Shown: positions 65-39,527 of the stretch, piece by piece | Position numbering within the stretch: position 1 is the stretch's first letter | Layout of the letters: the number at the start of each line of letters is the position of its first letter | From: a virus | Direction: 5' to 3' (one strand) | UHGV virus genome: UHGV-0152919 | DNA length: 39,527 nucleotides | Program-made: the position numbers and the translations under genes | Notes under the pieces: generated by a model | What the model saw: only the letters and a program-made list of their open reading frames with translations | Databases searched by the model: none | Told to the model about the DNA's origin: nothing

Positions 65-65
65 A

Positions 66-254: not shown

Positions 255-426
255 CGCTTTGCTCTCCTGCGTCTCTTTGCTGCTCGTCGTGCCGCTGCAA
301 TACCGGTATGGCGGCGCTTTGGTGCCGGGATGATGTTGTCAGCCATCAGGACATGTGGCTTTGCAATTAGCGCAGAAGCCCAAAAACGAGTCGGGTACGG
401 TAACAAGCCGATACATGCCACACGCA

Positions 427-1151: not shown

Positions 1152-1347
1152 GCTTCACCTCGATAGGCTTGATGGTGTCTAACAGCAGTCGGCGGCGCGT
1201 ATTTTCTGCAAAATGGCGGCGTCCAGTTTCTTTGTGGTAAAACTCGTTTTTGCCAACGACCCACATCCGCTCTGTTTGGTGCAGTTTTTTTACCTTCGGG
1301 CCATCTTTGGTGATCACGGTACCGGTATGGGTTTTTACGATTGTCAT
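1144..1347 (-). CDS. small hypothetical protein (67 aa)
   Basis: ORF track; start overlaps the stop of the upstream PAPS-reductase-like gene (ATGA-type overlap). Confidence 0.4.
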   Translation of the reverse strand: MTIVKTHTGTVITKDGPKVKKLHQTERMWVVGKNEFYHKETGRRHFAENTRRRLLLDTIKPIEVKHV

Positions 1348-2222: not shown

Positions 2223-2225
2223 GGT

Positions 2226-2954: not shown

Positions 2955-2963
2955 GCATCCCCC

Positions 2964-3050
2964 TTACCCATGTGCGACGATGCCGCCAAAAGTGATAGAG
3001 AACAGCCAGAAATAGATCGCGGCCATAATGATTTTGAATGCCGTGTTCAT
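2964..3050 (-). CDS. micro-ORF, 28-aa hydrophobic peptide (MNTAFKIIMAAIYFWLFSITFGGIVAHG)
   Basis: Manual translation; AGGAG 8 nt upstream of ATG; below the 60-aa cutoff of the ORF track; single predicted transmembrane segment. Confidence 0.35.
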   Translation of the reverse strand: MNTAFKIIMAAIYFWLFSITFGGIVAHG

Positions 3051-3132
3051 ATTTTCAGCTCCTGTGATTGATTGGATACATGCCGCGCCTTGCGGCATGT
3101 TTTTATTTTCACTTTCTCTGTTTTAAAAATCA

Positions 3133-3149
3133 AGATTTATTAGAGCAAT
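3133..3149 (-). promoter_or_regulatory. C1-repressor operator-like site (16/17 match to ATTGCTCTAATAAATTT on minus strand)
   Basis: Plus strand reads agatttattagagcaat; overlaps the stop codon of the upstream gene. Confidence 0.5.
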
Positions 3150-3655
3150 TATTGTTGGTGGAGAAGCGCGTTTTCATACTCCCTGACCATTAACGTAAGT
3201 ACGCCGTGACTCCTGAAAACACGCGCCACTTCAATCTTATCTTCCAGCGCGAACGCAATTTTACTTAGACCAATTTTCTTCAGGAGATCAATCTTTGCTG
3301 GACCGTCATTTCTGTCATCGGTGGCAGGACGCATAGATAGCAAAGGCTCAGCCCCGTTTGTTACGTACTTCCGCAGCCAGGCTCGTGTTTTATCCCTTGC
3401 GATCTCACAGCGCCCGGTTACAAACCAGACCGTGTAAACGTTAAATAACTGGCGCACCATATCAATAACTGGAGTGATGGGAGTATCGGTGTCACAGGCG
3501 AGATTAAACTCGTTCCAGTCCTTTGTTAATGCACCTTTACCTGGTGGCGGAAGCAAATGCAGTCTGTCTTCAGTTGCCTCTGATATTGTTCCATCAATAT
3601 CGACTATGACGATATACGGACGTTCCTGGTGTGCATGTTTATTGAAAATACTCAA
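3149..3655 (-). CDS. HAD-superfamily phosphatase resembling the 3'-phosphatase domain of T4 polynucleotide kinase/phosphatase
   Basis: DIDGT (DxDGT) motif I near N-terminus; VTGR and DDR motifs in the same order as the T4 Pnkp C-terminal domain (from memory). Confidence 0.6.
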   Translation of the reverse strand: MSIFNKHAHQERPYIVIVDIDGTISEATEDRLHLLPPPGKGALTKDWNEFNLACDTDTPITPVIDMVRQLFNVYTVWFVTGRCEIARDKTRAWLRKYVTNGAEPLLSMRPATDDRNDGPAKIDLLKKIGLSKIAFALEDKIEVARVFRSHGVLTLMVREYENALLHQQ

Positions 3656-3727
3656 ATGCCCTCCTCATTGGACGAAAAAAATGCTGGTGGGCGCACTCCA
3701 CCAGCATTAAAAGTGACACTGTAACTG

Positions 3728-4990
3728 TCAGCGAACGTAAATAGTGCCGCCGTTCTCTTTTTCCCATGCATCGCTACGTGCATAGCAAACATCGAGAAGT
3801 CTTCTTGCCGCTGTTTCCTCTAAACCCAATTCGACAACCAACTGCTCATGACGGCGGGTAACCACATCAAACAGGGTATGCAGCCCTTTAGCTGCCAGAT
3901 CATCAATAAATCCCGGTTCGAACGGCAGCTCTGCCTCTGCCAACATAACCTCTTGCGCCCACTCAACTCGACGGACCAGTTCCGGGCGGCGGCTTTCCAT
4001 CTCTTTACAGATCAATTCATGGAAGAACTCTACCCAACCTTCCGGCTGGAACTCGCGGAAAATGGCCAACGGCTGGAAGTTTGGCATCAACCATTCGTTG
4101 ATCCGGATATCAATGGCATAGCCCATGTCGCAGCAGAACTGATAAGCAAAGTCCAGCTTAGAAACGATATAAGGACGCTCGTTATTGAACTCTTTAGGCG
4201 ATGAGATCCCATAAGCCAGGAGGCGCGGGAAGAAGGAGATTTGCCCTAACGTCGGATGAAGTTTGCTTGCAGGGAAACGGCGCTCAGTAATGCCATACAT
4301 TTCCTTCTTGAGCGTCGCAAATTTGGCATTCTCATTAACCAGCGCGGTAACCTCTGCTTTTTTATTAGCAAATGCCACGCGCGCCTCGCTTGCATCTTTA
4401 ATAGTTTTTTTGAGCTGTTGGTTAAGGTCGGCGACCTGCTTACGCAGTTCCTGTCGCTCGCTTTTAGCTTTGTTATAGCGTTTCTCAAGGTTAAAAGGAT
4501 CAAGTTTCATGATCTCTTTATATTGAGATTTTAGCGTTGAAATCTGTGAGTTCCGCAGTTCAACCATCGCGGTCATTTCATTGAGTTTTGTTTCCAGCTC
4601 AATGCTTATACGTTCGGCATTATCAGCACGCTGGTTGGCGTCATGCGTCGCATCGTCGATCGCGTCCTGTTGCTGGCGTTTCAAATGTTCAATTTCCAGC
4701 TGAAGCTCTTCAATTTCTTTACCCTTCAGACCGAGATCCAACTGCATATTTTCAGCTGCATCTACCAGGGAGTTATGGCTATCAGCTTCTGCGTTATAAA
4801 CATCAATAAGCTGTGCGTGAAGCATCTCCGCTGACTGAACCGCATTATCAAAAAAACGCGCTGTGAGGTCATCACAACTAACGCGGCGTTGCGCGGCCCG
4901 GATGTTCTGGATAATGGCCGGGATACCGGCATTCAGGACGTCAGGGATAGATACATTTTCGATTGATTGGTTTTGTGCTGAAGTGATCAT
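3728..4990 (-). CDS. hypothetical protein with long central coiled coil (420 aa)
   Basis: ORF track; heptad-rich E/K/Q/L segment in the N-terminal half; no catalytic motif recognised. Confidence 0.6.
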   Translation of the reverse strand: MITSAQNQSIENVSIPDVLNAGIPAIIQNIRAAQRRVSCDDLTARFFDNAVQSAEMLHAQLIDVYNAEADSHNSLVDAAENMQLDLGLKGKEIEELQLEIEHLKRQQQDAIDDATHDANQRADNAERISIELETKLNEMTAMVELRNSQISTLKSQYKEIMKLDPFNLEKRYNKAKSERQELRKQVADLNQQLKKTIKDASEARVAFANKKAEVTALVNENAKFATLKKEMYGITERRFPASKLHPTLGQISFFPRLLAYGISSPKEFNNERPYIVSKLDFAYQFCCDMGYAIDIRINEWLMPNFQPLAIFREFQPEGWVEFFHELICKEMESRRPELVRRVEWAQEVMLAEAELPFEPGFIDDLAAKGLHTLFDVVTRRHEQLVVELGLEETAARRLLDVCYARSDAWEKENGGTIYVR

Positions 4991-4991
4991 T

Positions 4992-5210
4992 TCAAAGTTC
5001 CGTATTAGCTTGTGCTTCGGTCATTTTTCCTAAGTATGAAGGAGGAAGGACTACGCAATTTGTATCCAGTCCCTCACCTATGGCAGCCTGTAAAATTCTG
5101 GCTAAGGTGAGTCTCTTGTTGCGATACCTGGTGATGACATGCCTGATACCGCCGGTCGGCGTAACAAAGGCGATCAGCCAGTAGTGATATTTCCGTCGGA
5201 ATGGCCACAT
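4992..5210 (-). CDS. small hypothetical protein (72 aa)
   Basis: ORF track; sits immediately downstream (minus strand) of the operator/terminator/operator element at 5225-5290. Confidence 0.4.
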   Translation of the reverse strand: MWPFRRKYHYWLIAFVTPTGGIRHVITRYRNKRLTLARILQAAIGEGLDTNCVVLPPSYLGKMTEAQANTEL

Positions 5211-5224
5211 AGTGCACCTTGTAG

Positions 5225-5241
5225 ATTGCTCTAATAAAAAA
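5225..5241 (+). promoter_or_regulatory. C1 operator-like site (attgctctaataaaaaa, 14/17)
   Basis: Motif match on plus strand; paired with an inverted copy at 5274-5290. Confidence 0.45.
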
Positions 5242-5266
5242 CGTGATGAGTGTACATCACGTTTTA
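5236..5266 (-). terminator. intrinsic terminator-like hairpin (8-bp stem acgtgatg/catcacgt) with T-run on the minus strand
   Basis: Inverted repeat 5241-5248/5255-5262 flanked by an A-run (plus strand), i.e. a T-run on the minus strand; downstream of gene 5292-5993. Confidence 0.45.
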
Positions 5267-5273
5267 AAAATAT

Positions 5274-5290
5274 GGAATTATTAGAGCAAT
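5274..5290 (-). promoter_or_regulatory. C1 operator-like site (minus strand attgctctaataattcc, 14/17)
   Basis: Motif match; abuts the stop codon of gene 5292-5993. Confidence 0.45.
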
Positions 5291-5291
5291 A

Positions 5292-5993
5292 TTATTCTGA
5301 TTCTCGCTCAAAAAATGAGCTGATAAGGGGAAGCCAATCCTCTGACACTTCGCGAGGTCGCGGTTTGCCGTGGAAAAAGATTATTCGGCAGTCTTTTGGT
5401 AATGCCCCATTCCCCCTGGAGTAACGCGCGCTCGCATATTTTGAACCAGGTTCCACAACATCGGCCTTGTAACTTACAAACCATCCTGGATACAGATCCT
5501 GAAATGCTGGTGTATCATCGCCCATAACCTTTCGTAAGAACCCCTGATCACCCCAGCATTCAGTAGTAACACAACGAGCAATCCAACCTTCCGGATCTTG
5601 CCAGAATGCACTCCAGATATGCGCTTTTACACTATTTGGTATCCACAGGGCACCGCTGCCACGATATTGTGGATGGTAAAAATCCCTAAGCATGGTGAAG
5701 CTGGTTGGTGGATGCTCTAGGATTGGGCGTATATCACCGGCAATAACCGTGTCCAAATCCAGATAGAACAGATCATCGGTTATATCCGGTCGGAACAACT
5801 CGATTTTCGCCCACCAGCCACGGCACTTTTGCCACTGGTTGATCAATGGGACAACTTTGACGCCAGGTACATGTAAACGCTTCAGGTCTGTCAGGCAAAT
5901 AATTTCATAGCCTTTTGGCAGTTGATTAACCAGCCACTGCACATCGGAAGCGTTATAGTCACCACCAGAGCGAAAAACTAAAGCAATCTTCAT
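5292..5993 (-). CDS. putative nucleotide-sugar (glycosyl)transferase-like protein
   Basis: 233 aa; YLDLDTV DxD-like motif and N-terminal Rossmann-like beta-alpha pattern; assignment tentative. Confidence 0.5.
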
Positions 5994-6682
5994 GCTGCAC
6001 CATCACCTTTCACTTTCATCAATGTCAGGTTTCCGCAAAATACGGCACCAGTGTCGATATACTGCTGATTCCAGAATGTCTTCGGGCTTTTCACCGGAGT
6101 GTGACCAAAGATAAAACGATCTGCGCCCGAAATTTCGCCACCAATATCATCCATCGAATCACTGATACGCTCGCGCGCCCAGACAACGTTGAAAAGCGGC
6201 ACCTCCTTACCGAATTGGTATTCATTATCCGGATAGTCGGCATGGGCTATAACGATAGTTTCTTGCCCCGTGTTCAACTCAATGATATAGGGCAGACGCT
6301 TTACCAGCTCCACCAGCGCCCAGGCTAATATTTCCTGATCAGTGTCCAGCATGAAGAACCATTGTCCGCCATTCATTAGCCAGTTATTCACGTTGCCATC
6401 TGGACTTAACGCATCAATCATCAGCCGCTCATGGTTCCCCATCACTGCCCTGAACCAGGGCATCTGCAATAGTTCCAGACATTCGACATTTTCAGTACCG
6501 CGATCGATAAGGTCGCCGACCGATATCAGTAAATCCTGCGCCGGGTCAAAATCCACACGATGGAGTTCGGACATCAGTCTGGTGTAGCAACCATGCAGAT
6601 CACCAACAACCCAGACATTCCTGTATTTGGTACCGTCGATACGGTGATAAATTGTGGGTGCCATCATGTATTCTTCAGCCAT
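5990..6682 (-). CDS. ppp: serine/threonine protein phosphatase, lambda-PPase type (P1 Ppp-like)
   Basis: GDLHG, GDLIDRG and GNHE metallophosphatase motifs; near-collinear with the lambda phosphatase sequence from memory ([15 protein letters not shown]...). Confidence 0.9.
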
Positions 6683-7290
6683 TCTTTAAGAGTCATCTGC
6701 GGAATACCTCCCATTTTCCCGCATGAAACAACGTCAATCTGTTCACGCGCAGACTGGAATAACAAAGGCAGGTGACTTAGATTTTTTGGCGTGCCGCCGG
6801 AGTGAACGCGTAGTTCTTGCGTAGCGTCAACGCCCACCAGAGCTACATGTTTGAATCCGATATGGAAAGCCAGGTTCAGAGCACCATATGCACTATTGCC
6901 GCTGGCAATTTCATTCTCATCTTCGCAAAGGCCGAAATGTGCGGACCAGCGCCACGCCCACCACTCGGGAGAATTCGTATTTTTTGGCTCCATGCCGCGT
7001 TCAGCCACACGACGGAAGCACAGAACGCCATCTCTGACTTCACGTTCTTTAACATCGGGTAGTGCCATGCAATAACAAACACCACGGCGACGGCGGCCAC
7101 GACCAACGCGCCGCATATTGTCTGGGGATGGATCAAGGGTGAAAAAATAAGAAGCGCGGTTAAGCCAGTCGATGGCCCCATTGACCGCTATAATCGGCAC
7201 TCCGCGCGGCGCAACAAAGTTTGCGGCGCTTGGGCCACTGCCGACGATAATAACGCGATCACTGCCTCTAAATTTATTCTTGGGAAACAT
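6664..7290 (-). CDS. Rossmann-like GSGPS-motif protein, paralog of the next gene (possibly MptE/DUF115-like)
   Basis: IIVGSGPS...IIAVN...[11 protein letters not shown]...VALVGVD motifs shared with the 7188-7850 product. Confidence 0.5.
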
Positions 7291-7850
7291 TGAATTGCAC
7301 TGCTCCTACTTGCATTCAAAATATGTAAATCTGCGTGTTTTTTGCGGGTATCCAGGAACTGCTGTTGCCATTTTGAAATAGACACCTGCGTTGGATTCCG
7401 TAGTGCTTGAGGGTGCGCGCCATGCCAATGAAGGCCGTTTTGCAGAGAACAGTCATAGCCGACTAATACCACTACTTCAGCCCCTGATTCAGCAGCCAGA
7501 CTGATAGCCTGCGCGCCGCTATTTACCCCTTCCGCCGGTCCACAATATCGCCTGTACTCCAACGAAAATGATTTCGCCGCCGCCAGGTTGGCTGTCACTT
7601 TGCGGAATCTCCCTCCCGGTATGGTGGATCCGTATTGCTTCCACCATGACAAATCACCGGCGTATAAGGCATAAATGTCATCGAACATCTGCCAGGAATT
7701 GTTAACCGCGATGATTGAACAGCCAGTTTTTTCTATAGCAGCACAGTCCTCACGAGTGAGTGACGGTCCGCTACCGACACAAAAAACAGTCCTAGTCGCC
7801 CTGGGTGGTATGTTCATTCTCAGCTGCAAATTCAGCCTCCAGGCGAGCAT
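7188..7850 (-). CDS. Rossmann-like GSGPS-motif protein, paralog of the previous gene
   Basis: FCVGSGPS...IIAVN...NSGAQAISLAA...VVLVGYD; start may be an internal Met; overlaps the downstream gene by ~100 nt. Confidence 0.5.
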   Translation of the reverse strand: MLAWRLNLQLRMNIPPRATRTVFCVGSGPSLTREDCAAIEKTGCSIIAVNNSWQMFDDIYALYAGDLSWWKQYGSTIPGGRFRKVTANLAAAKSFSLEYRRYCGPAEGVNSGAQAISLAAESGAEVVVLVGYDCSLQNGLHWHGAHPQALRNPTQVSISKWQQQFLDTRKKHADLHILNASRSSAIQCFPRINLEAVIALLSSAVAQAPQTLLRRAECRL

Positions 7851-7980
7851 TCATTTCAGCGATTACAGGGTCCACTACAGCATCTGTTTCCTGTTCATTA
7901 CGCGGCATGACCGATGCCAGCGACTCATAATTAACCTTGGATGACACGATTATTCTCCCGATGTTAAAGTGCACTACCAC
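7792..7980 (-). CDS. small acidic hypothetical protein (62 aa)
   Basis: ORF track only; overlaps the start of the next gene. Confidence 0.3.
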   Translation of the reverse strand: MVVHFNIGRIIVSSKVNYESLASVMPRNEQETDAVVDPVIAEMNARLEAEFAAENEHTTQGD

Positions 7981-8013
7981 AAAGAGCTTGCATGCACTAA
8001 TTAATTTATTATT

Positions 8014-8592
8014 TTAAGCAGCATGCAACCACTTATCGCCGTTCAATACTTGCTCAATAGCCTCACCCTTTTTAAGACTTATGTATTCCAGGATGGCGGT
8101 AATCGCTTGTTCTGCACCATACGCAAGAACAACGTAGTAGCCTTCCTCTCTAAGCCTGCGCATCCAGGCGATCTGCTCTTTCGTCGGGGCTTTACCATTT
8201 GGTTCTTTAAGCTCAATTCGCATGCCGTGATAAATACCGCATGCTTTATCGAGACTCATGTCCGGATAACCTTTTTTCTGCCCTTCAGCCTTCATTTTCC
8301 CGGCGGTTGCTTTTGAACGCTTCCCTCCGTTAGGCGTTGCATGCAACAGCTCATAGATGTCAGGGTGCTTGCGTTCGAAGTAATCAAAAATGAAAACCTG
8401 CTCGAAGTGCTCGCAATTTCCGTCGCGCAGGTCTGGGTTCTTTGCCAGTGCTGCAAGTGCCTTCGCATGTGGAGAAACTTCTTTTACCGGCGCAAGCGAT
8501 AAGAATGGATCCTTTTTGGTTTTTGGCCTGGACCGCCCCTTATTTCGACGCTCACTAAAAGCCTGAAACTCTTCCTCAGTAAAGCGCAACAT
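8014..8592 (-). CDS. VRR-NUC domain nuclease (PD-(D/E)xK fold)
   Basis: GYPDMSL...IELKEPNGK...Q motif pattern characteristic of VRR-NUC. Confidence 0.7.
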   Translation of the reverse strand: MLRFTEEEFQAFSERRNKGRSRPKTKKDPFLSLAPVKEVSPHAKALAALAKNPDLRDGNCEHFEQVFIFDYFERKHPDIYELLHATPNGGKRSKATAGKMKAEGQKKGYPDMSLDKACGIYHGMRIELKEPNGKAPTKEQIAWMRRLREEGYYVVLAYGAEQAITAILEYISLKKGEAIEQVLNGDKWLHAA

Positions 8593-8594
8593 AA

Positions 8595-29204: not shown

Positions 29205-29232
29205 AAAGTCAACAAGTGACTTTCAATAAAAT
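29205..29232 (+). promoter_or_regulatory. candidate late promoter: palindrome AAAGTCAACAAGTGACTTT followed by TAAAAT -10
   Basis: 7-bp inverted arms aaagtca/tgacttt at 29205-29223; -10 at 29227-29232; 50 nt upstream of the capsid gene. Confidence 0.45.
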
Positions 29233-29283
29233 CTCTTCCGAAAAGGGATTCACACAAGTGCCTTGTGTTTAAGGAAGAGTAAA

Positions 29284-30990
29284 TTGAGTAACTTACGCGA
29301 ATACCAGAATCGTATTGCAGATATCGCAAAACGCTCTAAAGCTGTGCTTGGCTGGGCAAGCACTGCGCAGTTCGGTACTGATAACCAATTCATTAAAGAT
29401 GATGCCGCGCGTGCCGCATCTATCCTTGAAGCTGCACGTAAAGACCCAATTTTTGCGGGTATCTCTGATAATGCCACCGCTCAAATCGCTACAGCGTGGG
29501 CAAGTGCACTGGCTGACTACGCCGCAACACATAAATCTATGCCACGTCCGGAAATTCTGGCCTCCTGCCATCAGACGCTGGAAAACTGCCTGATTGAGTC
29601 CACCCGCAATAGCATGGACGCCACCAATAAAGCGATGCTGGAATCAGTCGCGGCAGAGATGATGAGTGTTTCTGACGGGGTTATGCGTCTGCCTTTATTC
29701 TTGGCGATGATCCTGCCTGTTCAGTTGGGGGCAGCTACCGCTGATGCGTGTACATTCATTCCGGTTACGCGTGACAAGTCCGAAATCTATGAAATCTTTA
29801 ACGTAGCGGGTTCTTCTTTTGGCTCCTATGCTATTGGTGATGTTCTGGACATGCAATCCGTTGGCGTGTACAGCCAGTTGCGCCGCCGCTATGTGCTGGT
29901 TGCAAGCTCCGACGGCACCAGCAAAACTGCAACCTTCAAGATGGAAGATGTCGAAGGTCAGAATGTCCCGATTCGCAAAGGTCGCACAAACATCTACGTT
30001 AACCGTATTAAGTCTGTTGTTGATAACGGCTCCGGTACTCTGCTTCACACATTCAATAACAAAGCAGGCGAACAAATCACTGTTACTTGCTCTTTGAATT
30101 ACAACGTTGGTCAGATTGCCCTGTCGTTCTCCAAAGCGCCGGATAAAGGCACTGAGATCGCCATTGAGGCGGAGATCAATATAGAAGCAGCTCCTGAGCT
30201 GATCCCACTTATCAACCACGAAATGAAGAGTTACACCCTGTTCCCAAACCAGTTCGTCATCGCGGCTGAGCACACGGTACAGGCGGCGTATGAAGCACAG
30301 CGTGAATTTGGTCTGGATCTTGGCTCCCTACAGTTCCGCACCCTGAAGGAATACCTATCCCATGAGCAAGATATGCTTCGTCTTCGTATCATGATTTGGC
30401 GAACTCTTGCGACCGACTCCTTTGATATTGCACTACCAGCTAACCAGACCTTTGATGTGTGGGCAACCATCATTCGAGGCAAATTCCAGACGGTATATCG
30501 CGGTATTATTGAGCGTGTTAAATCTTCTGGTGCGATGGGGATGTATGCCGGTGCTGATGCGGCATCTTTCTTCAAACAATTGCCGAAGGATTTCTTCCAG
30601 CCAGCAGAAGATTACATCCAGACCCCATACGTCCACTACATTGGCACTCTGTTCGGCAACGTCAAAGTGTTCGAAGTACCAGAAGGTATTTGTACGAACC
30701 TGACCGCCGACGGTATCCAGTTCAGCCCAATGGATGTGCTGTGCTACGTCCGTGATGAAAATCCGGGCAAAGCGGGCTTCGTAACTGGTGATGCAGTCCC
30801 GGCTGTCCCATTCCAGCATCCGACCACCCCGGCACTAGTCAACCGAACCACTCTGTGGGGTTCGGCTATCAACGATATGCATCCACGCAACGGTGCTGAC
30901 TACTTCACCCGTGTAACTCTGACTATGGCAAAAAATGGCGGAATTAACTTCCTGACCGGTAACACGATTGATGCTGGTGACTCTGAGTAA
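29284..30990 (+). CDS. putative major capsid protein precursor (P1 gp23-like); probable TTG start
   Basis: ~569 aa; AAGGAAG RBS 6 nt before TTG at 29284; first gene after the late promoter; position matches P1 gene 23 as I remember the map. Confidence 0.65.
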   Translation: MSNLREYQNRIADIAKRSKAVLGWASTAQFGTDNQFIKDDAARAASILEAARKDPIFAGISDNATAQIATAWASALADYAATHKSMPRPEILASCHQTLENCLIESTRNSMDATNKAMLESVAAEMMSVSDGVMRLPLFLAMILPVQLGAATADACTFIPVTRDKSEIYEIFNVAGSSFGSYAIGDVLDMQSVGVYSQLRRRYVLVASSDGTSKTATFKMEDVEGQNVPIRKGRTNIYVNRIKSVVDNGSGTLLHTFNNKAGEQITVTCSLNYNVGQIALSFSKAPDKGTEIAIEAEINIEAAPELIPLINHEMKSYTLFPNQFVIAAEHTVQAAYEAQREFGLDLGSLQFRTLKEYLSHEQDMLRLRIMIWRTLATDSFDIALPANQTFDVWATIIRGKFQTVYRGIIERVKSSGAMGMYAGADAASFFKQLPKDFFQPAEDYIQTPYVHYIGTLFGNVKVFEVPEGICTNLTADGIQFSPMDVLCYVRDENPGKAGFVTGDAVPAVPFQHPTTPALVNRTTLWGSAINDMHPRNGADYFTRVTLTMAKNGGINFLTGNTIDAGDSE

Positions 30991-31016
30991 TCAGGGGAAG
31001 CTCTCCGTTTAACATA

Positions 31017-31035
31017 GCGCCCCCGCGCGGGGCGC
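31017..31035 (+). other. GC-rich stem-loop (7-bp stem gcgcccc/ggggcgc) between capsid and sheath genes
   Basis: Perfect inverted repeat with no following T-run; candidate mRNA-stabilising or partial-termination hairpin. Confidence 0.4.
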
Positions 31036-31050
31036 ATAACAGGGAAAGTT

Positions 31051-32640
31051 ATGTCTCAATATTCAATTCAACAGTCATTAGGTAATGCATCCGGCGTCGC
31101 GGTTAGCCCGATCAATGCCGATGCGACGTTATCTACCGGTGTTGCATTAAATAGCAGCTTGTGGGCTGGTATTGGCGTATTTGCGCGTGGCAAGCCGTTT
31201 ACTGTTCTTGCGGTTACTGAGTCCAATTACGAAGATGTTCTTGGCGAACCGCTGAAGCCGTCTTCCGGCTCACAGTTTGAACCAATTCGCCATGTGTACG
31301 AAGCTATTCAGCAAACGTCTGGTTATGTTGTCCGTGCTGTTCCGGATGATGCGAAGTTCCCGATTATTATGTTCGATGAATCAGGCGAACCGGCTAACAG
31401 TGCGTTGCCATACGGTTCTGAAATTGAACTTGATAGCGGCGAAGCCTTTGCTATCTACGTTGATGATGGTGATCCGTGTATTTCACCTACCCGTGAGTTA
31501 ACCATCGAAACGGCAACAGCGGACAGCGCGGGTAATGAACGCTTCCTCTTAAAACTGACCCAGACGACTTCGCTCGGTGTGGTAACGACCCTGGAGACAC
31601 ACACTGTGTCTTTGGCGGAAGAAGCGAAAGATGACATGGGCCGCTTGTGTTATCTGCCTACGGCTCTGGAAGCCCGTTCTAAATATCTGCGTGCGGTTGT
31701 TAATGAAGAGCTGATTTCTACAGCGAAAGTAACAAATAAAAAATCGGTGGCATTCACTGGCGGTACCAATGGCGATCAGTCGAAAATCTCAACCGCTGCT
31801 TACCTGCGTGCGGTTAAAGTGCTGAATAATGCGCCGTACATGTACACCGCTGTTCTTGGCCTGGGCTGCTATGACAATGCGGCTATCACCGCATTAGGTA
31901 AAATCTGTGCAGATCGCCTGATTGATGGCTTCTTTGATGTCAAACCGACATTAAGGTACGCAGAAGCACTAACAGCTGTTGAGGGTACCGGTTTACTTGG
32001 TACCGATTATGTAAGCTGTTCTGTCTATCACTACCCGTTCTCCTGCAAAGACAAATGGACCCAATCCCGTGTGGTCTTCGGTCTGTCTGGCGCGGCGTAT
32101 GCGGCGAAAGCTCGTGGCGTCAAGAAAAACTCTGATGTCGGCGGTTGGCATTACTCACCGGCTGGTGAAGAACGTGCCGTCATTGCTCGTGCGTCAATTC
32201 AACCGCTGTATCCGGAAGATACCCCGGACGAAGAAGCAATGGTCAAGGGCCGTCTCAATAAAGTATCTGTTGGCACCTCTGGCCAGATGATCATCGACGA
32301 TGCTTTAACTTGCTGCACGCAGGATAACTATCTGCACTTCCAGCACGTCCCATCCCTGATGAATGCAATCAGTCGTTTCTTTGTCCAGTTAGCCCGACAG
32401 ATGAAGCATAGCCCGGACGGTATTACTGCGGCTGGCCTGACTAAAGGGATGACCAAACTTTTAGATCGCTTTGTCGCCTCCGGCGCTCTGGTGGCTCCTC
32501 GTGATCCCGATGCTGACGGTACAGAACCGTATGTGCTGAAAGTTACGCAGGCGGAATTCGATAAATGGGAAGTAGTCTGGGCCTGCTGCCCGACTGGCGT
32601 AGCCCGTCGTATCCAGGGCGTACCGCTGCTTATTAAGTAA
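31051..32640 (+). CDS. putative contractile tail sheath protein (P1 gp22-like)
   Basis: 529 aa; lies between the capsid gene and the tube-like genes; identification by size and synteny. Confidence 0.6.
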   Translation: MSQYSIQQSLGNASGVAVSPINADATLSTGVALNSSLWAGIGVFARGKPFTVLAVTESNYEDVLGEPLKPSSGSQFEPIRHVYEAIQQTSGYVVRAVPDDAKFPIIMFDESGEPANSALPYGSEIELDSGEAFAIYVDDGDPCISPTRELTIETATADSAGNERFLLKLTQTTSLGVVTTLETHTVSLAEEAKDDMGRLCYLPTALEARSKYLRAVVNEELISTAKVTNKKSVAFTGGTNGDQSKISTAAYLRAVKVLNNAPYMYTAVLGLGCYDNAAITALGKICADRLIDGFFDVKPTLRYAEALTAVEGTGLLGTDYVSCSVYHYPFSCKDKWTQSRVVFGLSGAAYAAKARGVKKNSDVGGWHYSPAGEERAVIARASIQPLYPEDTPDEEAMVKGRLNKVSVGTSGQMIIDDALTCCTQDNYLHFQHVPSLMNAISRFFVQLARQMKHSPDGITAAGLTKGMTKLLDRFVASGALVAPRDPDADGTEPYVLKVTQAEFDKWEVVWACCPTGVARRIQGVPLLIK

Positions 32641-32649
32641 GGGAATACA

Positions 32650-33465
32650 ATGAGCAAAAACTTTTTTCAATCCGGGGCATTTTTGGGGAATGGACTGTCC
32701 CGTTTCGCTTTGAACTCTGATCCTGTGCAGCTGATGGAGTCTGCCCGAGCAAGCGCCGAACCGCCAACAGATCCGGTTATTAATAATAATCCGGAACCGG
32801 CGGCACAGACTAACGATAACGTTCCATCTGCCCCGGCTCCAGAGCAAATCCTGGAAGGGAAAGACGGTAAAGAATGGACCGTCGAACAGGCGCACCAGAT
32901 GATTCTGGAAGCTGCAAATCGAAGTGCTATGCAGAATGCGTTGAGTGATGCGGCCGACGCCGTTTTCTCCTGGGCTGATAGCGGTGATCTGACTTTCGAC
33001 TCCCTTGATGGTTTCGTTCAGGCTATCGCTGGTATCTCTGATGACGACGACTCCGAAGTTACAGAAGAACAGGACGATGCCTATAACGAAGCATGGGCAA
33101 ATGTTGCTGACTTCCTCGCAGCATGCGGTGTAGATGATGACCTGATCGAAGCACTGGCTGACGATGAAGACGACGACGCTGCTGCTGATGTTGGTGCCTC
33201 TATCGCTGGTTTAGATAGCGACGACCGCGACGAACTGGAAGCGGCGTTTGTTGTTGCTGGCACTTCTGATGAAATGCTGACTGAAGCATTTAAGAAGGTT
33301 GTTCGTAACGGTGAGATCAAACTCATCCGTAAACGCCTGCGTAAAAAACGTCTGACTGCGGCTCAAAAATCGGCGCTGAAAAAAGCGCGTCGAAAAGCCC
33401 AGACCGGCGCGGCAAAACTTGCCCGCAAAAAGTCAATGAAACTGCGCCGTAAGCGCCTTGGCTAA
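32650..33465 (+). CDS. hypothetical virion protein with strongly acidic core and K/R-rich C-terminal tail (P1 gp21 position)
   Basis: Runs of D/E at residues ~120-200, then KRLRKKRLTAAQKSALKKARRKAQ... C-terminus. Confidence 0.55.
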   Translation: MSKNFFQSGAFLGNGLSRFALNSDPVQLMESARASAEPPTDPVINNNPEPAAQTNDNVPSAPAPEQILEGKDGKEWTVEQAHQMILEAANRSAMQNALSDAADAVFSWADSGDLTFDSLDGFVQAIAGISDDDDSEVTEEQDDAYNEAWANVADFLAACGVDDDLIEALADDEDDDAAADVGASIAGLDSDDRDELEAAFVVAGTSDEMLTEAFKKVVRNGEIKLIRKRLRKKRLTAAQKSALKKARRKAQTGAAKLARKKSMKLRRKRLG

Positions 33466-33500
33466 AGGAGGAGGCCGGAGAACTCCGGCCTTTAACTTGA

Positions 33501-34082
33501 ATGGCACCTATACCTTATGGGGTTTACAGCCAGGCTGACGGTGTATCGCCATTTCTGAAAGTTACTTTAACGAACTCTCAGTACCAGGTTACCGGATATA
33601 TCAGCCAGGGAGCGGCAATGAACATGGCCCAGAATTGGGAAGCGCCGTTTACCGGTATGTCCATGGGATCTGTTTCTGGTGCTCTGGGTGGTTTTGTGCA
33701 AGTAGGTACTGAAACAACGTCGGTTGCCCGTTGGAATAGCTTAATGGTTTGGGAAGGGGGGACTCCGCCGACGTTCACGCTGCCTGTAACTTTCATTGCT
33801 TTGAACAATCCATTCATTGAAGTTTCAGGCGCTATCGCCGCGTTGACAGCCATGATTAGCCCGGAACTAAAAGCGGCCAATGTTGGTGGTCGAATCCCGG
33901 AGCGCGTGACGCTAAACATTGGTCGCCGGATCAACATCACCGATGTCGCCATCCAGGACTTAAGTTTTGATCTCGATGCGCCAAGGGACAGTAATGGATA
34001 TTTCCTGAAAAACACCGTCAACCTCCAGTTGACCGGTTCTTCGATATATAACAGCTCCGATATTGTTCGGGCGTTCCAGTAA
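33501..34082 (+). CDS. putative tail tube-family or tail assembly protein (193 aa)
   Basis: ORF track; preceded by a stem-loop plus RBS; adjacent to the tube gene. Confidence 0.5.
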   Translation: MAPIPYGVYSQADGVSPFLKVTLTNSQYQVTGYISQGAAMNMAQNWEAPFTGMSMGSVSGALGGFVQVGTETTSVARWNSLMVWEGGTPPTFTLPVTFIALNNPFIEVSGAIAALTAMISPELKAANVGGRIPERVTLNIGRRINITDVAIQDLSFDLDAPRDSNGYFLKNTVNLQLTGSSIYNSSDIVRAFQ

Positions 34083-34093
34083 AAGGATTTTAT

Positions 34094-34603
34094 ATGGGGC
34101 ACAATAACACTAAGGGAAACCGTAAATTTATTAAGGGCCGCTATACTGCCAACGCGGCCAAAGGCGAACGACTGGTATCTTCTGAATTCCAGCTCACTTT
34201 TGCAGGCCATGAAGATATCAGCGTACTGGTTCGCACGTCGCAAATCCCTGAAATGACACGCGAGGATGTGGAGGACTATGGTCCGAATGGTGTGAAGTTC
34301 AACCAGCATGGACCAATTCGAAACTCTGGGGAAATCCAGGTCCAGTGCGTGGAGACTATCGAAGGCGATATTCTTCAGTTCATCAAGGATCGCATTGCGG
34401 CGAAGGACTATGTTGATATCACGATGGCTGCTACCCCTGAATCCAAATCTTCCGGGGTTAACGCTGTGACAAAAGCTGCTACAACAATTGAAATGTTGGA
34501 CTGCAAAATCTACAGTGATGCAATCGACTTTAGTACCGAAGATGTGACTGCCGCTGTGCGCCCGTCACTTCGTATCGTCTACAACTGGATTGAGTGGGAT
34601 TAA
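34094..34603 (+). CDS. tub: tail tube protein (T4 gp19-like)
   Basis: 169 aa; FQLTFAG near N-terminus and C-terminal YNWIEWD resemble T4 gp19 (from memory); symbol by analogy to P1 tub. Confidence 0.6.
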   Translation: MGHNNTKGNRKFIKGRYTANAAKGERLVSSEFQLTFAGHEDISVLVRTSQIPEMTREDVEDYGPNGVKFNQHGPIRNSGEIQVQCVETIEGDILQFIKDRIAAKDYVDITMAATPESKSSGVNAVTKAATTIEMLDCKIYSDAIDFSTEDVTAAVRPSLRIVYNWIEWD

Positions 34604-34623
34604 GAGTCATCCCTTGTATTTTA

Positions 34624-34647
34624 AAGCTCCTTCGGGAGCTTTTTTTA
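34624..34647 (+). terminator. rho-independent terminator after the tail tube gene
   Basis: agctcc-ttcg-ggagct hairpin followed by ttttttt. Confidence 0.75.
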
Positions 34648-34774
34648 TAACTATTTTATATAAGAATGCATCGATAACATTGTCTTGAGTTTTATGTTAG
34701 ATTATTAATGTTCTAATAAACTACAATTATTGAGGTAGATGTTTGTGCCTGTACTGTTAAAGGGGGACTCTAAA

Positions 34775-35371
34775 ATGGCTGTGATTCCAATGTCGTACTC
34801 CCCGGGTACTGTCGCTCGTCGATTTTCGATCCTGGACGGAGTTACCATCCAGGGTGTGCTTTACCAGGTTATATGGGATTCCAAAACCCCATTTGCAGCT
34901 GTAATAGAGGCTGCGCCTTCTGTTATCGATGGTGATATGCGCCATAAGGTTGTCGCTACTCTTGAACTTCAACGTCGCCCGCAGCTTGAAGGCGTACTGG
35001 TAAGGAAGTTCTGGGAGGATAGCGATGTTGCCCAGATTGAAGGTATCGTGGTTGATGGAACCGTCCGGGATGTCGGTTTAGCTACTTTTGTTTACGAAAC
35101 CGTAGCCTCAAAAGCTGGTGTTGTTTTGCTCAGTGATAATGAGCAATACGAAGGTGGAAAAGCTCTTTGGCAACACATCGCCCGTCGCTCTTCCGAGCTA
35201 AAAGTGTTTATCCTCGACACCGATGCCGCTCAGTATTACCCGTTTGACGGCGAACGTGTTTGCTATGACGGGGTAAGTATTCCTGAATCCGAGATATGGA
35301 GTGAACACCCAGATCGAAGTAAGCATGGGGTTGTTCTGGTCGCTGAATCCATAATTGGAAAGGCGGCATAG
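34775..35371 (+). CDS. hypothetical protein (~199 aa)
   Basis: ATG at 34775 preceded by AGGGGGA; ORF track frame 34739-35371; degenerate operator-like motif aatgttctaataaacta at 34707-34723 upstream. Confidence 0.5.
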   Translation: MAVIPMSYSPGTVARRFSILDGVTIQGVLYQVIWDSKTPFAAVIEAAPSVIDGDMRHKVVATLELQRRPQLEGVLVRKFWEDSDVAQIEGIVVDGTVRDVGLATFVYETVASKAGVVLLSDNEQYEGGKALWQHIARRSSELKVFILDTDAAQYYPFDGERVCYDGVSIPESEIWSEHPDRSKHGVVLVAESIIGKAA

Positions 35372-35553
35372 CAGTAAAAAATTCCTTGCTCCTAAAAAGG
35401 GGAGAGGGCTAATCTACGTATGCTAAGCATAGATATGGCCTCAGATTAATGTTAAGCGTCTTGCAGGACGCGTAATGTTATCTGGGGCTTTCTTCTATCT
35501 GCTTGTCGGGTAATGCCTGAAGCAGATAGCCTCAAGCACCCGCAGCGATTGTA

Positions 35554-35799
35554 TCAATGTCTGGCTTTTTTTCTATAGAAATCACCTGGAAGGGTGAATA
35601 TCCACATCAGAAGAAATGTTGCAGCAAACATGATCCCTAATGGCCAGACCGCGCCAAAGAAAATCCATACTAAGATCTCCTCTGCTCGTTCTTTGCGGTC
35701 GATATCGACAAGCATTTTTCGGCTGATCATGTATACACAGAAGCCAATACAAACATATCCTGCAAAAGCGATCGCTAACTGTAAAAAATCAGATTGCAT
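35554..35799 (-). CDS. small membrane protein (~81 aa, two predicted TM helices)
   Basis: Internal ATG at 35799 with GAGG RBS; hydrophobic segments IAFAGYVCIGFCVYMI and ILVWIFFGAVWPLGIMFAATFLLMWIF. Confidence 0.45.
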   Translation of the reverse strand: MQSDFLQLAIAFAGYVCIGFCVYMISRKMLVDIDRKERAEEILVWIFFGAVWPLGIMFAATFLLMWIFTLPGDFYRKKARH

Positions 35800-35829
35800 C
35801 TCCGACCTCAAACTGAAAACGCCAGGTGA

Positions 35830-35846
35830 CTCCAGATTAGAGCAAT
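35830..35846 (-). promoter_or_regulatory. partial C1 operator-like motif (attgctctaat core only)
   Basis: Plus strand ctccagattagagcaat; 11/17 match concentrated in the conserved half. Confidence 0.3.
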
Positions 35847-35849
35847 CTA

Positions 35850-36695
35850 TCACCCTCTGAATCCTGCCGGTATACCCCATTTTTCGTTATCTTTATTTTT
35901 GGCTAAAACCGCATTAAGAGCTTCGTTTACCGTCATGCAATGCGGCAAATTATCGAAGTTTGATACCCCGCCAATATCAGGAGAACGCTTGTTCTTCAGG
36001 TAAGCATATTTCCGCGCTGCCGCCTCTACTTTCTGCTTGAACTCATGTTTTTGTGCGCGTTTTTTGGATAACCGCAGATTGTCAGCCTTTGCTTTTGTCT
36101 CAGCGATCCATGAAGTCAATTTTTTGAGTCTGCTCGTTCCGGCACCGCCGGAAACTGATCTTTTTGTTTTTTTAACTTGTGACTTCTTATTCTTTATTGC
36201 CACGTCATCCTGACAGGGGGAGGGGGTATCATTTTGACATGGGGGTGTGGATAAAAAATTAAATAAAGCCAATGTCTTAGCGAGAACAGCTTTAACCTTG
36301 GTTGCCGCTGAAGAGATCTTTAATTTGCTTTCAATCAGCGCATTTTTGGCTTGTTGTGCGAAGGCCAAAAAGGATGGTGTAAACCGGTACAGGTTAGCGC
36401 GACGTTCACGGTGATCGCCGATAACAATCTCTACAGACAGGATTCCTTTGTTTACAGCTTCACGGAATGCACGAACGACGGTTGATTGGCTATAACCAGT
36501 TTCTGCCGCGATCAGGCGGTGAGGCTTGTGAATGAAGTATTCACTGGTTGTTGCCGCGAGATTTGCACATTGCGACAGGATATGCCCGGCGCTACGGGAT
36601 AGACCGGAGTGTGTTACAAAGCAGGCCAATTCATAGCCAGAAAAAGTAAAATCGCTCATCGTTATACAGCTCAGGAAAGTGACTTTAGCCAGCAT
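35850..36695 (-). CDS. repL: lytic replication initiator RepL
   Basis: 281 aa; N-terminal winged-helix-like region and K-rich C-terminus; immediately downstream of kilA as in P1. Confidence 0.8.
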   Translation of the reverse strand: MLAKVTFLSCITMSDFTFSGYELACFVTHSGLSRSAGHILSQCANLAATTSEYFIHKPHRLIAAETGYSQSTVVRAFREAVNKGILSVEIVIGDHRERRANLYRFTPSFLAFAQQAKNALIESKLKISSAATKVKAVLAKTLALFNFLSTPPCQNDTPSPCQDDVAIKNKKSQVKKTKRSVSGGAGTSRLKKLTSWIAETKAKADNLRLSKKRAQKHEFKQKVEAAARKYAYLKNKRSPDIGGVSNFDNLPHCMTVNEALNAVLAKNKDNEKWGIPAGFRG

Positions 36696-36724
36696 TACAA
36701 TGCTGGTGGTTCTTACTACGTCTG

Positions 36725-37525
36725 TTAGCGCGTTGCCGCGACAGGTACCAGCACACCAGCATCAAGCAATCGCTTCATCAGCCACTGCTGACCTTTGCCG
36801 GTTATACGAGTCGTGAAAGAAATCCTGCTTCCATTGCTTGTATCGATCACGGTTTCTTTAAGGGTGAAATACCCACGGGATATGTATTCTTGTTTGGGGA
36901 CGTTCCTGCGTTCACCGGTTGCGATCAGAATTCCGTTATCACGCAACCAGGTGAAGAGATAGTTTTGGCCCAGGCCGAGCACTTTGGCATAGTTGCCGAT
37001 TAGAACCCCGCTGGCGGTAGCAACGCGTTCAGCGAATTCGACTTTAGGTGCATCCATAAGCATTTTTTGCTCCAGCCGTTGCTTTTGCTCTGCCAGGTCG
37101 GCAGCCAAACGGAGAGCTTCAGGGAGACTCTGCGGAATAGCAGGTTGTAATCTTCCGGTTCGATAGTCGATAAATGTCTGGTTTACCTTCAGCCGAAACG
37201 CGGGAGAAATCCAGCCTGCGTACTCCACAGCGAGCAATTCATGGGCAAAAGTGCCGCCGCCACGGCCTTCGAACGAAACTATGCAATTCTGCATAGTTTC
37301 TTTTTCAAGCTCTTCGATGAGCTGTTTAGCTGACAGCGTTCTTAGCCATTGAGCTGGCGCTTTATGGGCACCGAGTCCGCTCGCTCTGTGTAGAGCATTA
37401 AGGTTGTAACGGCCAGCGCGGTCGGTCGTAATTTCAACACCACAAATAACGGGCAGAGTGGTTGAAGGATCGACATTTTGATGAAGGTTTGATATATTCA
37501 TATCCGCATTGAATGTTTGTTGCAT
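36725..37525 (-). CDS. kilA: KilA (KilA-N domain plus antirepressor-like C-terminal domain)
   Basis: 266 aa; the KilA-N fold is named after this P1 protein; C-terminal half is a paralog of the Ant C-terminus (shared LPEALRLAA..LAEQK..LEQ motif). Confidence 0.8.
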   Translation of the reverse strand: MQQTFNADMNISNLHQNVDPSTTLPVICGVEITTDRAGRYNLNALHRASGLGAHKAPAQWLRTLSAKQLIEELEKETMQNCIVSFEGRGGGTFAHELLAVEYAGWISPAFRLKVNQTFIDYRTGRLQPAIPQSLPEALRLAADLAEQKQRLEQKMLMDAPKVEFAERVATASGVLIGNYAKVLGLGQNYLFTWLRDNGILIATGERRNVPKQEYISRGYFTLKETVIDTSNGSRISFTTRITGKGQQWLMKRLLDAGVLVPVAATR

Positions 37526-37594
37526 TTTTTCTCCAAATTTGCATCAACCTTCAATCACCAGCTCGAAATGGTGATTCTTTGCACTTAGAAAACG

Positions 37595-37611
37595 AAATTT
37601 ATTAGAGCAAA
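37595..37611 (-). promoter_or_regulatory. C1 operator-like site (16/17) upstream of kilA-repL (Op53-like)
   Basis: Plus strand aaatttattagagcaaa in the ant-kilA intergenic region. Confidence 0.65.
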
Positions 37612-37689
37612 TTTTTCTGGCTCGATCCAGATCGGGTTGGACGATCTGCTCAGAAACCTGCCAGTTTGCTGGCAGGTTTTTTTCTTTTG

Positions 37690-38733
37690 TTAACCTATTG
37701 CTACTGGTTTTAACAAACCAGCATCAAGTAGCTTGCGAGTTAACCACTGCTGGCCTTTACCCGTTAATTGGGGCGTCAGCCGTATCTGGTAGCCATTTTC
37801 ATCATCCAGCACCACTTCTTTCACCGTGAAATACCCGGCGTTAATGTACTGCTGGCGCGGTACGTTTTTGCGCGCACCAAAAGCCATGAGAATGCCGTTC
37901 TGGCGCAACCATGAGAAAAGGGCGTTTTGCTTAAGTCCAACGACCTTTGCAAAGTTCCCGATCAGGATTCCATTAGCCACTGATACCCGGTCGGCAAAAT
38001 CGACTTTAGGGGCTGCGGCCACCAGCTGTTGTTCCAGCTGCATTTTCTGTTCTGCCAACTCGGCAGCCAGGCGTAGAGCTTCTGGTAATGTTTGGGGGAT
38101 CGATGGGGCAGGGGAGTTTGCCTGCTGCAATTCTTCCAGTTTGTCGATCAGCGAACGGCGGACCGCTTTTGACTCGCGCGCGGCGACTCGCAGGGCTTGT
38201 TTGTAGGTCATGGTGATGACCTCAAAAGAGCGCCCAGCCCTTGTGCCATGGGATTTTGCACTTTTTGTGTAAAATTCACCTTCAAGTTCATCGAGTATTT
38301 TTTCGATGAATTTATTGTTTCTAACCTCTGGTTCTCCACATAACTTGCGTGCCTCATTGACCATCTTCAACAATGTTTGGCTGTCGATTGTGTCTCCGGT
38401 GTTGGGGATGATATTCACGGCTGGTGCTGGCGTAGCTGACGTAACAGGTGCTGTTTTTTCAACATTCAAATTATTACCGGTCATTCTATGTGCCTCCTTT
38501 CTTATTTCTGCTGCCACTGTTGCGTAACGTAGACGTCCTTGTTCAATCAAATAATCCCTGATCTCGGCTATCAGTAGCCTGTTGATCACAGCCTTATCTG
38601 TTCGGGTATAAAAACGCCTGGTTATCATGAAATAGTTAGCAATTGCGCCGGGGATCTCCCGTGTCGGCATACAGGCAGTATGCAAAGCGATCGCTTCGGC
38701 TATTTCATTACGGGTGACGAGAGGTTTTTTCAT
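37690..38733 (-). CDS. ant1: antirepressor Ant (Ant1; an in-frame internal start would give Ant2)
   Basis: 347 aa; Ant/KilA-type C-terminal domain; ATG overlaps the icd stop (ATGA). Confidence 0.85.
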   Translation of the reverse strand: MKKPLVTRNEIAEAIALHTACMPTREIPGAIANYFMITRRFYTRTDKAVINRLLIAEIRDYLIEQGRLRYATVAAEIRKEAHRMTGNNLNVEKTAPVTSATPAPAVNIIPNTGDTIDSQTLLKMVNEARKLCGEPEVRNNKFIEKILDELEGEFYTKSAKSHGTRAGRSFEVITMTYKQALRVAARESKAVRRSLIDKLEELQQANSPAPSIPQTLPEALRLAAELAEQKMQLEQQLVAAAPKVDFADRVSVANGILIGNFAKVVGLKQNALFSWLRQNGILMAFGARKNVPRQQYINAGYFTVKEVVLDDENGYQIRLTPQLTGKGQQWLTRKLLDAGLLKPVAIG

Positions 38734-38951
38734 AAACCCCCCTGAACGTCGGCAGAGAAGGGGAGGTTCCAGTAACTAAGTGAATTGCGCGAGTTAGTAG
38801 AAAAACGGGCAGTAAAAATGCAGGGGCCATCAGGCAATTGAGAGCGTGCTTCGTCTTCAGTTGCTGCGATAACGAAGTGATAGTGGTGTTTTTTACAGGA
38901 ATAGAAACGCCAGATGAATTCTGGGCGTGTGCAAGGATTGGCATTAACCAT
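38730..38951 (-). CDS. icd: Icd-like small protein (73 aa), translationally coupled to ant
   Basis: 73-aa ORF ending in ATGA overlap with ant; TGAGG RBS; position between the c4 leader and ant. Confidence 0.7.
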   Translation of the reverse strand: MVNANPCTRPEFIWRFYSCKKHHYHFVIAATEDEARSQLPDGPCIFTARFSTNSRNSLSYWNLPFSADVQGGL

Positions 38952-39264
38952 AGTTACGGCCTCACTAACAGGTTTAACAACCTGCTACCCGCTGTCAAAC
39001 AGGTGGCAGGACGTGACAGGGTTGACAGACTGGCGTTAGTGAAACCAGCAGGCCGAAGCCTCCCCATCACGCCCCACCATAATTCGGGCGTAACGCGGTT
39101 TACGGACACAAAAATACCGCAATATCGGAAATCTGCGGTTGTCCGCACTAACATTCAGGCTGTCAAACCCGGTCGCAGAATTTGCTACGACGGTGGAACT
39201 ATAAGCCTGAACGATTAAAAGGTCAATATGATGCGAAAAGATAGCATTCGCGACTTAAAAATAC
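38952..39264 (-). ncRNA. immI leader expected to contain the c4 antisense RNA and its target repeats (exact RNA ends not determined)
   Basis: Non-coding stretch between the Op51-like operator and icd, with repeated TTGACAG/CTGTCAA segments capable of pairing; assignment from knowledge of P1 immI. Confidence 0.35.
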
Positions 39265-39281
39265 AAATTTATTAGAGCATT
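39265..39281 (-). promoter_or_regulatory. C1 operator-like site (16/17) upstream of the c4-icd-ant operon (Op51-like)
   Basis: Plus strand aaatttattagagcatt. Confidence 0.65.
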
Positions 39282-39377
39282 ATTTGTTTAATAAATACAC
39301 AGTTGGATCTAATAACCTCTTTTTTTTAAAGGCGAAAATATGTACCCTAAATGAGTTATAAGGCAGGTGAGGTTATA

Positions 39378-39509
39378 ATGAGAAAACTATTACTACCGTT
39401 ATTATTTATGGCTGGGACTGTTAATGCAGCATCAAGCGTAAAGGAGATTTGTACCGATTATACGAAATACCTTGGGCACGTTTACGCCTTTGCGATCAAT
39501 GACTATTAA
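39378..39509 (+). CDS. small secreted-peptide-like ORF (43 aa, N-terminal signal-like segment)
   Basis: Manual translation MRKLLLPLLFMAGTVNAASSVKEICTDYTKYLGHVYAFAINDY; AGGTGAGG RBS 7 nt upstream; below the ORF-track cutoff. Confidence 0.3.
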   Translation: MRKLLLPLLFMAGTVNAASSVKEICTDYTKYLGHVYAFAINDY

Positions 39510-39527
39510 TCCATGCGTAGGAGTGGA

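Follow-up and report, generated by a model that had tools for sequence, protein, structure and literature searches.

The Scattered 17-bp Sites of UHGV-0152919 Correspond to the C1 Operators of Phage P1

Introduction

The C1 operators of Escherichia phage P1 were mapped biochemically in the 1980s and 1990s. Each site is an asymmetric 17-bp sequence to which the repressor C1 binds; the co-repressor Lxc/Bof strengthens this binding, and the anti-repressors Coi and Ant1/Ant2 release C1. Blocking of promoters is the established mechanism of C1 repression. The lambda CI operators (OL/OR) overlap early promoters in the same way but, unlike the C1 sites, they are two-fold symmetric, bound by dimers, and clustered at two loci. 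P1 possesses 22 C1 operators with the asymmetric consensus ATTGCTCTAATAAATTT (PMC8546580), and ssb, dmt, kilA, and ban count as C1-controlled genes in a study that measured their induction once C1.100 had been inactivated by heat (PMC4713147). Here, a computational follow-up is described for UHGV-0152919, a 39,527-nucleotide (nt) stretch of viral DNA that is referred to in its full length as the window. A previous reading of the sequence alone had noticed a set of C1-operator-like 17-mers in it and proposed that one repressor connects immunity, replication, methylation, and an island of enzyme genes.

A second system for comparison is the set of stoperators bound by gp71 of the cluster A mycobacteriophage L5. 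There, one repressor acts at more than 20 scattered asymmetric sites, many of them in short gaps (PMC9283540). The L5 sites are 13-mers, function in a different host, and have been demonstrated to block elongation, while the C1 sites are 17-mers. The likeness between the two systems is one of function and is drawn without a claim of homology.

C1 Operators in the Window

The window is almost certainly part of a P1-type phage-plasmid, and the 17-mers would be the operators of its primary immunity repressor, C1. When compared with phage records by megablast, the window matches a P1-type phage-plasmid (Punavirus), with 98-99% identity to Escherichia phage P1 (AF234172/NC_005856). It is the reverse complement of P1 and aligns with it in five collinear blocks that run from P1 85,182 to 47,894 (BLAST against P1 47,000-90,000). 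Eleven positions in the window map one-to-one onto protein_bind features labeled "phage repressor C1" in AF234172. Ten of the 11 are identical to P1 in sequence, and all of them agree with P1 in position, strand, and neighboring genes (Table 1).

The sequence-only reading was right to recognize a C1-operator-like regulon, as every strong site has the sequence and the position of a C1 operator of AF234172, but these sites were already known as C1 operators of P1. The coordinates and strands of its nine strong matches also hold, except that the partner of the site at 18957 starts at 18946 and not at 18945. The list was incomplete, however, because the annotated operator Op83 (7991, +) had been left out. 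The finding leaves knowledge of P1 unchanged, the sites being annotated in the reference genome. Its bearing is on an uncharacterized P1-like element, which appears to keep an intact C1 regulon, and on annotation, for which the operator set is usable in many P1-like phage-plasmids of the Enterobacteriaceae.

The motif is also strongly enriched. With up to three mismatches, ATTGCTCTAATAAATTT occurs nine times in the window against an expectation of 0.22 +/- 0.42, and none of 100 dinucleotide-preserving shuffles reached nine. To avoid circularity, seven P1 operators from beyond the window (Oref, Oprt, Ossb, Olpa, Oc1a, Oc1d, and Oc1e) served to build a weight matrix, with which the window and 300 shuffles were scanned. 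This independent matrix found 10 sites scoring at least 14 bits, with 0.55 expected, and eight scoring at least 18 bits, with 0.05 expected. A matrix scan with a shuffled control had been suggested as a check of the original proposal, and its outcome places the motif far above the shuffled frequency. Below the ten real sites follow 34707 (+) with 13.2 bits, 14777 (+) with 11.7 bits, and 5971 (-) with 11.5 bits; the best score per shuffled window is 13.9 bits on average.

Table 1. C1 operator positions in the window, named as in P1.
Operator	Position	Strand	Sequence	Placement and remarks
OpmgT (Op88)	3133..3149	-	ATTGCTCTAATAAATCT	1-nt overlap with pap stop codon; 178 nt 5' of pmgT (2226-2954, -)
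OpmgRb (Op86b)	5225..5241	+		Inverted partner of Op86a; 14 nt 5' of pmgR ATG
OpmgRa (Op86a)	5274..5290	-	ATTGCTCTAATAATTCC	1 nt past pmgQ stop codon; exact 77-bp match to P1 context
Oppp (Op83)	7991..8007	+	CATGCACTAATTAATTT	4 mismatches, 17.2 bits; between pmgM and pmgN
O26 (Op82)	8898..8914	+	ATTGCACTAATAATTTT	In the divergent pmgL/gene 26 gap; 72 nt 5' of gene 26 (8987-9364, +)
Obanb (Op72b)	18946..18962	+	ATTACACTAATAAATTT	Inverted, 6-bp overlap with Op72a (divalent operator)
Obana (Op72a)	18957..18973	-	Perfect consensus	Includes dmt stop codon (18964-18966)
Odmt (Op68)	22479..22495	-	ATTGCTCTAATAAATAT	About 71 nt 5' of uhr-hrdC-dmt; divergent from upfC
Orlf (Op55) position	35830..35846	-	Only ATTGCTCTAAT retained	3 nt past repL stop codon
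OrepL (Op53)	37595..37611	-	TTTGCTCTAATAAATTT	69 nt 5' of kilA-repL
Oc4 (Op51)	39265..39281	-	AATGCTCTAATAAATTT	5' of c4 RNA-icd-ant

The regulated units named in the original proposal are also borne out. They comprise the immunity operon c4-icd-ant (Op51), the lytic replication genes kilA-repL (Op53) and ban (Op72), and the methylation gene dmt (Op68), as well as the pmgR and pmgT blocks (Op86 and Op88). Within the immunity operon, the C4 RNA is located at 38999-39084 and its a1b1 targets at 39152-39204 (Rfam). The tRNA-ban operon includes three tRNAs.

Orientation and Placement of the Operators

Eight of the nine primary sites in the window lie on the same strand as the operon that they precede. 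The count was extended to the whole of P1 by adding Oref, Oprt, and Ossb, which are motif matches 5' of ref, prt, and ssb, as well as the annotated Olpa, Oc1a, Oc1c, Oc1d, and Oc1e; the inverted partners Op72b, Op86b, and Op99b were placed outside the primary set. Across P1, 16 of 17 primary sites are co-oriented (binomial p of about 1.4e-4). In Cronobacter phage JK004, a distant P1-like phage in which the operators are unannotated, the same is true of 16 of 18 motif matches relative to the next annotated gene. In all three sets the sites therefore have the scattered, asymmetric, and transcription-co-oriented character of stoperators. The orientation rule, which the P1 annotation leaves implicit, is now given statistics and is replicated in a phage with about 71% identity.

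The sequence-only reading had stated this rule with the site at 5225 (+) as the only exception. The rule itself holds, and the site at 5225 is indeed the inverted partner of the one at 5274, the two forming the P1-annotated pair Op86b/Op86a, but the one primary site that breaks the rule is Op83 at 7991. Paired inverted sites are found at two loci, with Op72a and Op72b overlapping each other and Op86a and Op86b flanking a hairpin. In addition, it had been claimed that the sites often overlap the stop codon of the preceding gene. This is the case for Op72a, which contains the codon, and for Op88, which overlaps it by 1 nt; Op86a and Op55 come close, at 1 and 3 nt past the codon, respectively, but Op51, Op53, Op68, and Op82 have no stop codon close by.

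The placement of operators in short gaps raises the possibility of a second function. Op55, Op72a, Op86a, Op88, and Op94, which is outside the window, might also act as orientation-dependent roadblocks to read-through, a role that would add to the control of initiation by C1. These operators sit 0-3 nt from the upstream stop codon in the same orientation, and the same placement recurs at five sites in JK004. Moreover, repressors of the L5 type are monomers on more than 20 asymmetric sites that follow transcription, and reversal of a site abolishes repression (PMC9283540). Each of the short-gap sites also overlaps or abuts an annotated promoter, however, so that initiation control alone explains both placement and orientation, and no report of an elongation block by C1 was found in the literature searched. 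Overall, an additional roadblock function appears unlikely, if still worth considering.

Promoters and the Mechanism of Repression

The P1 record places the operators in several positions relative to annotated promoters. Operator positions 2-7 (TTGCTC) coincide with the -35 hexamers of P1ban (Op72a), PpmgR (Op86a), and P2pmgT (Op88). Positions 6-11 of Op53 (TCTAAT) coincide with the -10 hexamer of PkilA (P53). In a third arrangement, the -35 hexamer starts at the 3' end of the operator, as in P2c4 (Op51; P51a), Pdmt (Op68), and P1pmgT (Op88). A single fixed layout, with the -35 at positions 2-7 and the -10 at positions 25-30, was tried and rejected: it fits Op72a, Op86a, and Op88 but fails for Op51, Op53, Op68, and Op82.

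These relationships suggest how the regulon may function. The operators are predicted to overlap or abut the sigma-70 promoters of c4-icd-ant, kilA-repL, uhr-hrdC-dmt, tRNA-ban, pmgR-pmgS, and pmgT. By virtue of this overlap with early or lytic promoters, bound C1 would block RNA polymerase during plasmid lysogeny, and the loss of C1 would be expected to switch on all of the controlled units together. The most economical reason for the orientation of the operators would be that promoter hexamers lie inside or next to an asymmetric site, so that its direction follows that of transcription.

The conserved sequence may extend beyond the 17-mer. On their 3' side, at operator positions +21 to +25, the operators that head operons have a T-tract, in most cases with TAA after it, so that the 17-mer grows into a cassette of about 30 nt. 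Among 12 primary operators, the tract is conserved at about 1 bit per position. In the window it is seen 3' of the operators at 3133, 5274, 7991, 8898, 22479, 37595, and 39265, and it is present at about half of the JK004 operators. No such tract accompanies the inverted partners Op72b, Op86b, and Op99b. The tract could be part of a promoter, either as a -10 element or as a -35 element starting from position 17, or it could be contacted by the C1/Lxc complex.

The conservation and orientation of the motif might instead derive mainly from a shared early-promoter cassette read by RNA polymerase, in which TTGCTC would be the -35 and the -10 would lie about 17 nt 3' of it, and not from the repressor. 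The three promoters in which TTGCTC is the annotated -35, the T-tract and TAA 3' of operon-heading operators, and the co-orientation of the sites with transcription would all agree with such a cassette. However, the most conserved positions, 3-11 and 15, reach well past the -35 hexamer, and the placement of the sites varies among the annotated promoters, from the -35 to the -10 to a position 5' of the -35. The motif also occurs without this architecture in Op72b, Op86b, and Op99b, which are inverted partners, and in the internal Op99c. C1 footprints on the P1 17-mers are reported in published work. Furthermore, both the P1 record and the literature describe the sites as C1 binding sites (PMC8546580). 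That the motif is mainly a promoter cassette is thus highly improbable, and binding of C1 is the preferred reading of its conservation.

Between Op86a and Op86b lies a terminator-like hairpin, AAAACGUGAUG...CAUCACGUUUU, that is followed by a U-run (5222-5293, -). The whole region folds with -26.9 kcal/mol (z = -10.5), and the U-run is complementary to the A-run of Op86b. In JK004, the corresponding stem (L006 22972-23041) differs in sequence yet pairs, GAAGCAUGGUG/CGCCAUGUUUU, and the changes are therefore compensatory.

Conservation in Cronobacter Phage JK004

JK004 shows about 71% nucleotide identity over the pmgQ-pmgS region, and its C1 protein is 76% identical to P1 C1. With up to three mismatches, the 18 motif matches in JK004 compare with about 0.15 expected, and five of them abut the stop codon of the preceding gene. 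Orthologous sites are found for Op68, Op72, Op86a/b, Op88, Op94, and the c1-coi region. In pairwise alignments, the 17-mers of Op68, Op86a/b, and Op88 stand out as conserved islands in JK004 flanks that are otherwise 70-80% identical or unalignable. Such islands bear the mark of purifying selection acting on the sites. The shuffled counts at the three-mismatch and 18-bit thresholds, together with the retention of the same sites in a phage with about 71% identity and diverged flanks, refute for the nine strong sites the idea that the matches are chance copies of an AT-rich word in AT-rich intergenic DNA, an idea that has next to no probability and suits only the weakest candidates, 34707 and 14777, which fall within the range of shuffled best scores.

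Two differences between the phages concern the form of the operators. The ban operator of JK004 consists of two direct copies 28 bp apart (L007 29881-29925, +), where P1 has an overlapping inverted pair. In addition, JK004 has an extra anti-oriented site, ATTGCTCTAATAAAAAA (L007 13242-13258, +), fused to the T-run of the bplB terminator in a design like that of Op86b.

Observations That Weigh Against a Uniform C1 Regulon

Several observations speak against the assignment of the sites to one C1 regulon, or against parts of it. First, tblastn finds no c1 or coi gene in the window, so that homology with P1 is the basis for naming one repressor. The gene for this repressor is located outside the window, and we infer its presence in the replicon from relatives: in the nearest complete plasmid, NZ_LR890200.1, which is 99.5% identical over 97% of the query, a "phage repressor protein C1" is encoded about 11 kb left of where the window begins. 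Second, a generic sigma-70 scan of the window, which was too strict, gave promoter-like matches at only two operators, Op88 and that of the c4 promoter. For the overlap of operators with promoters, the main support is therefore annotation transferred from P1.

The remaining points concern individual operators. Among the primary operators, Op83 alone runs counter to its neighboring genes (pmgN-ppp). Op82 has the orientation of gene 26. However, the predicted sigma-70 promoters P1pmgL and P2pmgL overlap this site and point in the opposite direction, toward pmgL, which makes the assignment of Op82 to gene 26 ambiguous. Neither Op82 nor Op83 has a counterpart in JK004, where that of Op82 was sought 5' of the gene 26 homologue. 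Lastly, Op55 is degenerate in the window. It has six mismatches, scores below 10 bits, and keeps 11 of 17 bases (ATTGCTCTAAT).

Op83 is followed by a T-tract and TAAG of its own, and its direction leads across pmgM and pmgL to Op82 and the gene 26 tail operon. Given this direction and the downstream sequence, it may belong to a rightward transcript, either antisense or a leader, and not to the ppp operon.

The Op55 Breakpoint and Weak Candidates

The site at 35830 (-) had been listed as a weaker copy of the motif. Its sequence alone does not support this description, but its position does, being that of P1 Orlf (Op55). The homology between P1 and the window stops inside the operator, at position 11/12, which is why only ATTGCTCTAAT is retained; the six bases at the 3' end differ, as repL is followed by another gene module in this element. 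Where P1 has rlfA-rlfB-pmgF, the module includes a small open reading frame (ORF) for a hydrophobic protein of about 81 amino acids, with its ATG at 35799 after GAGG, and an uncharacterized 210-amino acid ORF (34739-35371, +). It also has a match to the sok antitoxin RNA (Rfam RF01794, 89.7 bits, 35367-35541, -), at which no intact hok ORF of at least 25 amino acids is found.

The break in Op55, which is a single case, hints that modules may be exchanged at operator cores. A broader model can be built from this break, the T-tract, and the short-gap placement. In this model, C1 operators would not only block promoters but be directional 30-nt cassettes, made up of the 17-mer, T5 at +21 to +25, and TAA, that also act, like mycobacteriophage stoperators, as orientation-dependent stops to read-through at operon junctions and whose cores are junctions of mosaic exchange between P1-like phages. 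As a whole, the model is improbable.

A second proposed weaker copy, at 34707..34723 (+) (AATGTTCTAATAAACTA), is unsupported as an operator, although it is not disproved. Its score is at chance level, below the average best score of shuffled windows, and the segment is absent from P1. It lies 15 nt 5' of the 210-amino acid ORF. The intergenic region around it is 98% identical in SJ46 and RCS47, and its conservation is therefore uninformative. JK004 offers no orthologous support, as the gene 3' of bplB is unrelated and the operator-like site there is the anti-oriented, terminator-fused one. Another candidate, at 14777 (+) in the overlapping gene junction of ban and dbn, was rejected as well; its 11.7-13 bits are at chance level, and it is unannotated in P1.

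Relatives of the Element and Accessory Genes

The same consensus is found in P7, SJ46, RCS47, JL22, and several hundred plasmids of E. coli, Klebsiella, and Salmonella, and these elements differ only in the mosaic cargo between the operators. Both C1 sites at Op86 are also annotated in the P7 record. In PLSDB, 352 plasmid records cover 80% or more of the window's first 25 kb, and none of them matches it exactly.

Four segments of the window are without a P1 counterpart when compared by BLAST, namely 1-2259, 17870-18037, 24290-25164, and 34645-35836. The genes 3' of pmgT also differ from those of P1. At 427-2222 (-), under Op88, the pmgU-pmgV region of P1 is exchanged for other genes, which are a PAPS-reductase-domain ORF (1344-2222; Pfam E = 3e-9), an uncharacterized 120-amino acid ORF, and an Ead/Ea22-like ORF (427-951; E = 1e-32). 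The PAPS-reductase/Ead-like arrangement is also present in phage JL22 and many plasmids. Because these three ORFs sit 3' of pmgT under Op88, they seem to have been brought under C1 control. In this way, the operators may reveal accessory genes that have come under the control of C1 in this lineage.

The segment at 24290-25164 replaces P1 upfA with an ORF of the N4 gp49/Sf6 gp66 family (24298-24657, E = 1e-33) and an uncharacterized ORF of 133 amino acids. The segment at 17870-18037, near plp, is a short insertion of about 140 bp relative to P1.

Two general features of the window were also recorded in comparison with shuffled sequence. Matches to the sigma-70 consensus are rarer than in shuffles, with seven against 24.9 +/- 3.9 at positions 1-20000 and 15 against 24.7 +/- 5.9 at 20001-39527. 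In terminator-like hairpins, by contrast, the window exceeds the shuffles, with 30 against 20.3 in the first of these intervals and 40 against 21.1 in the second.

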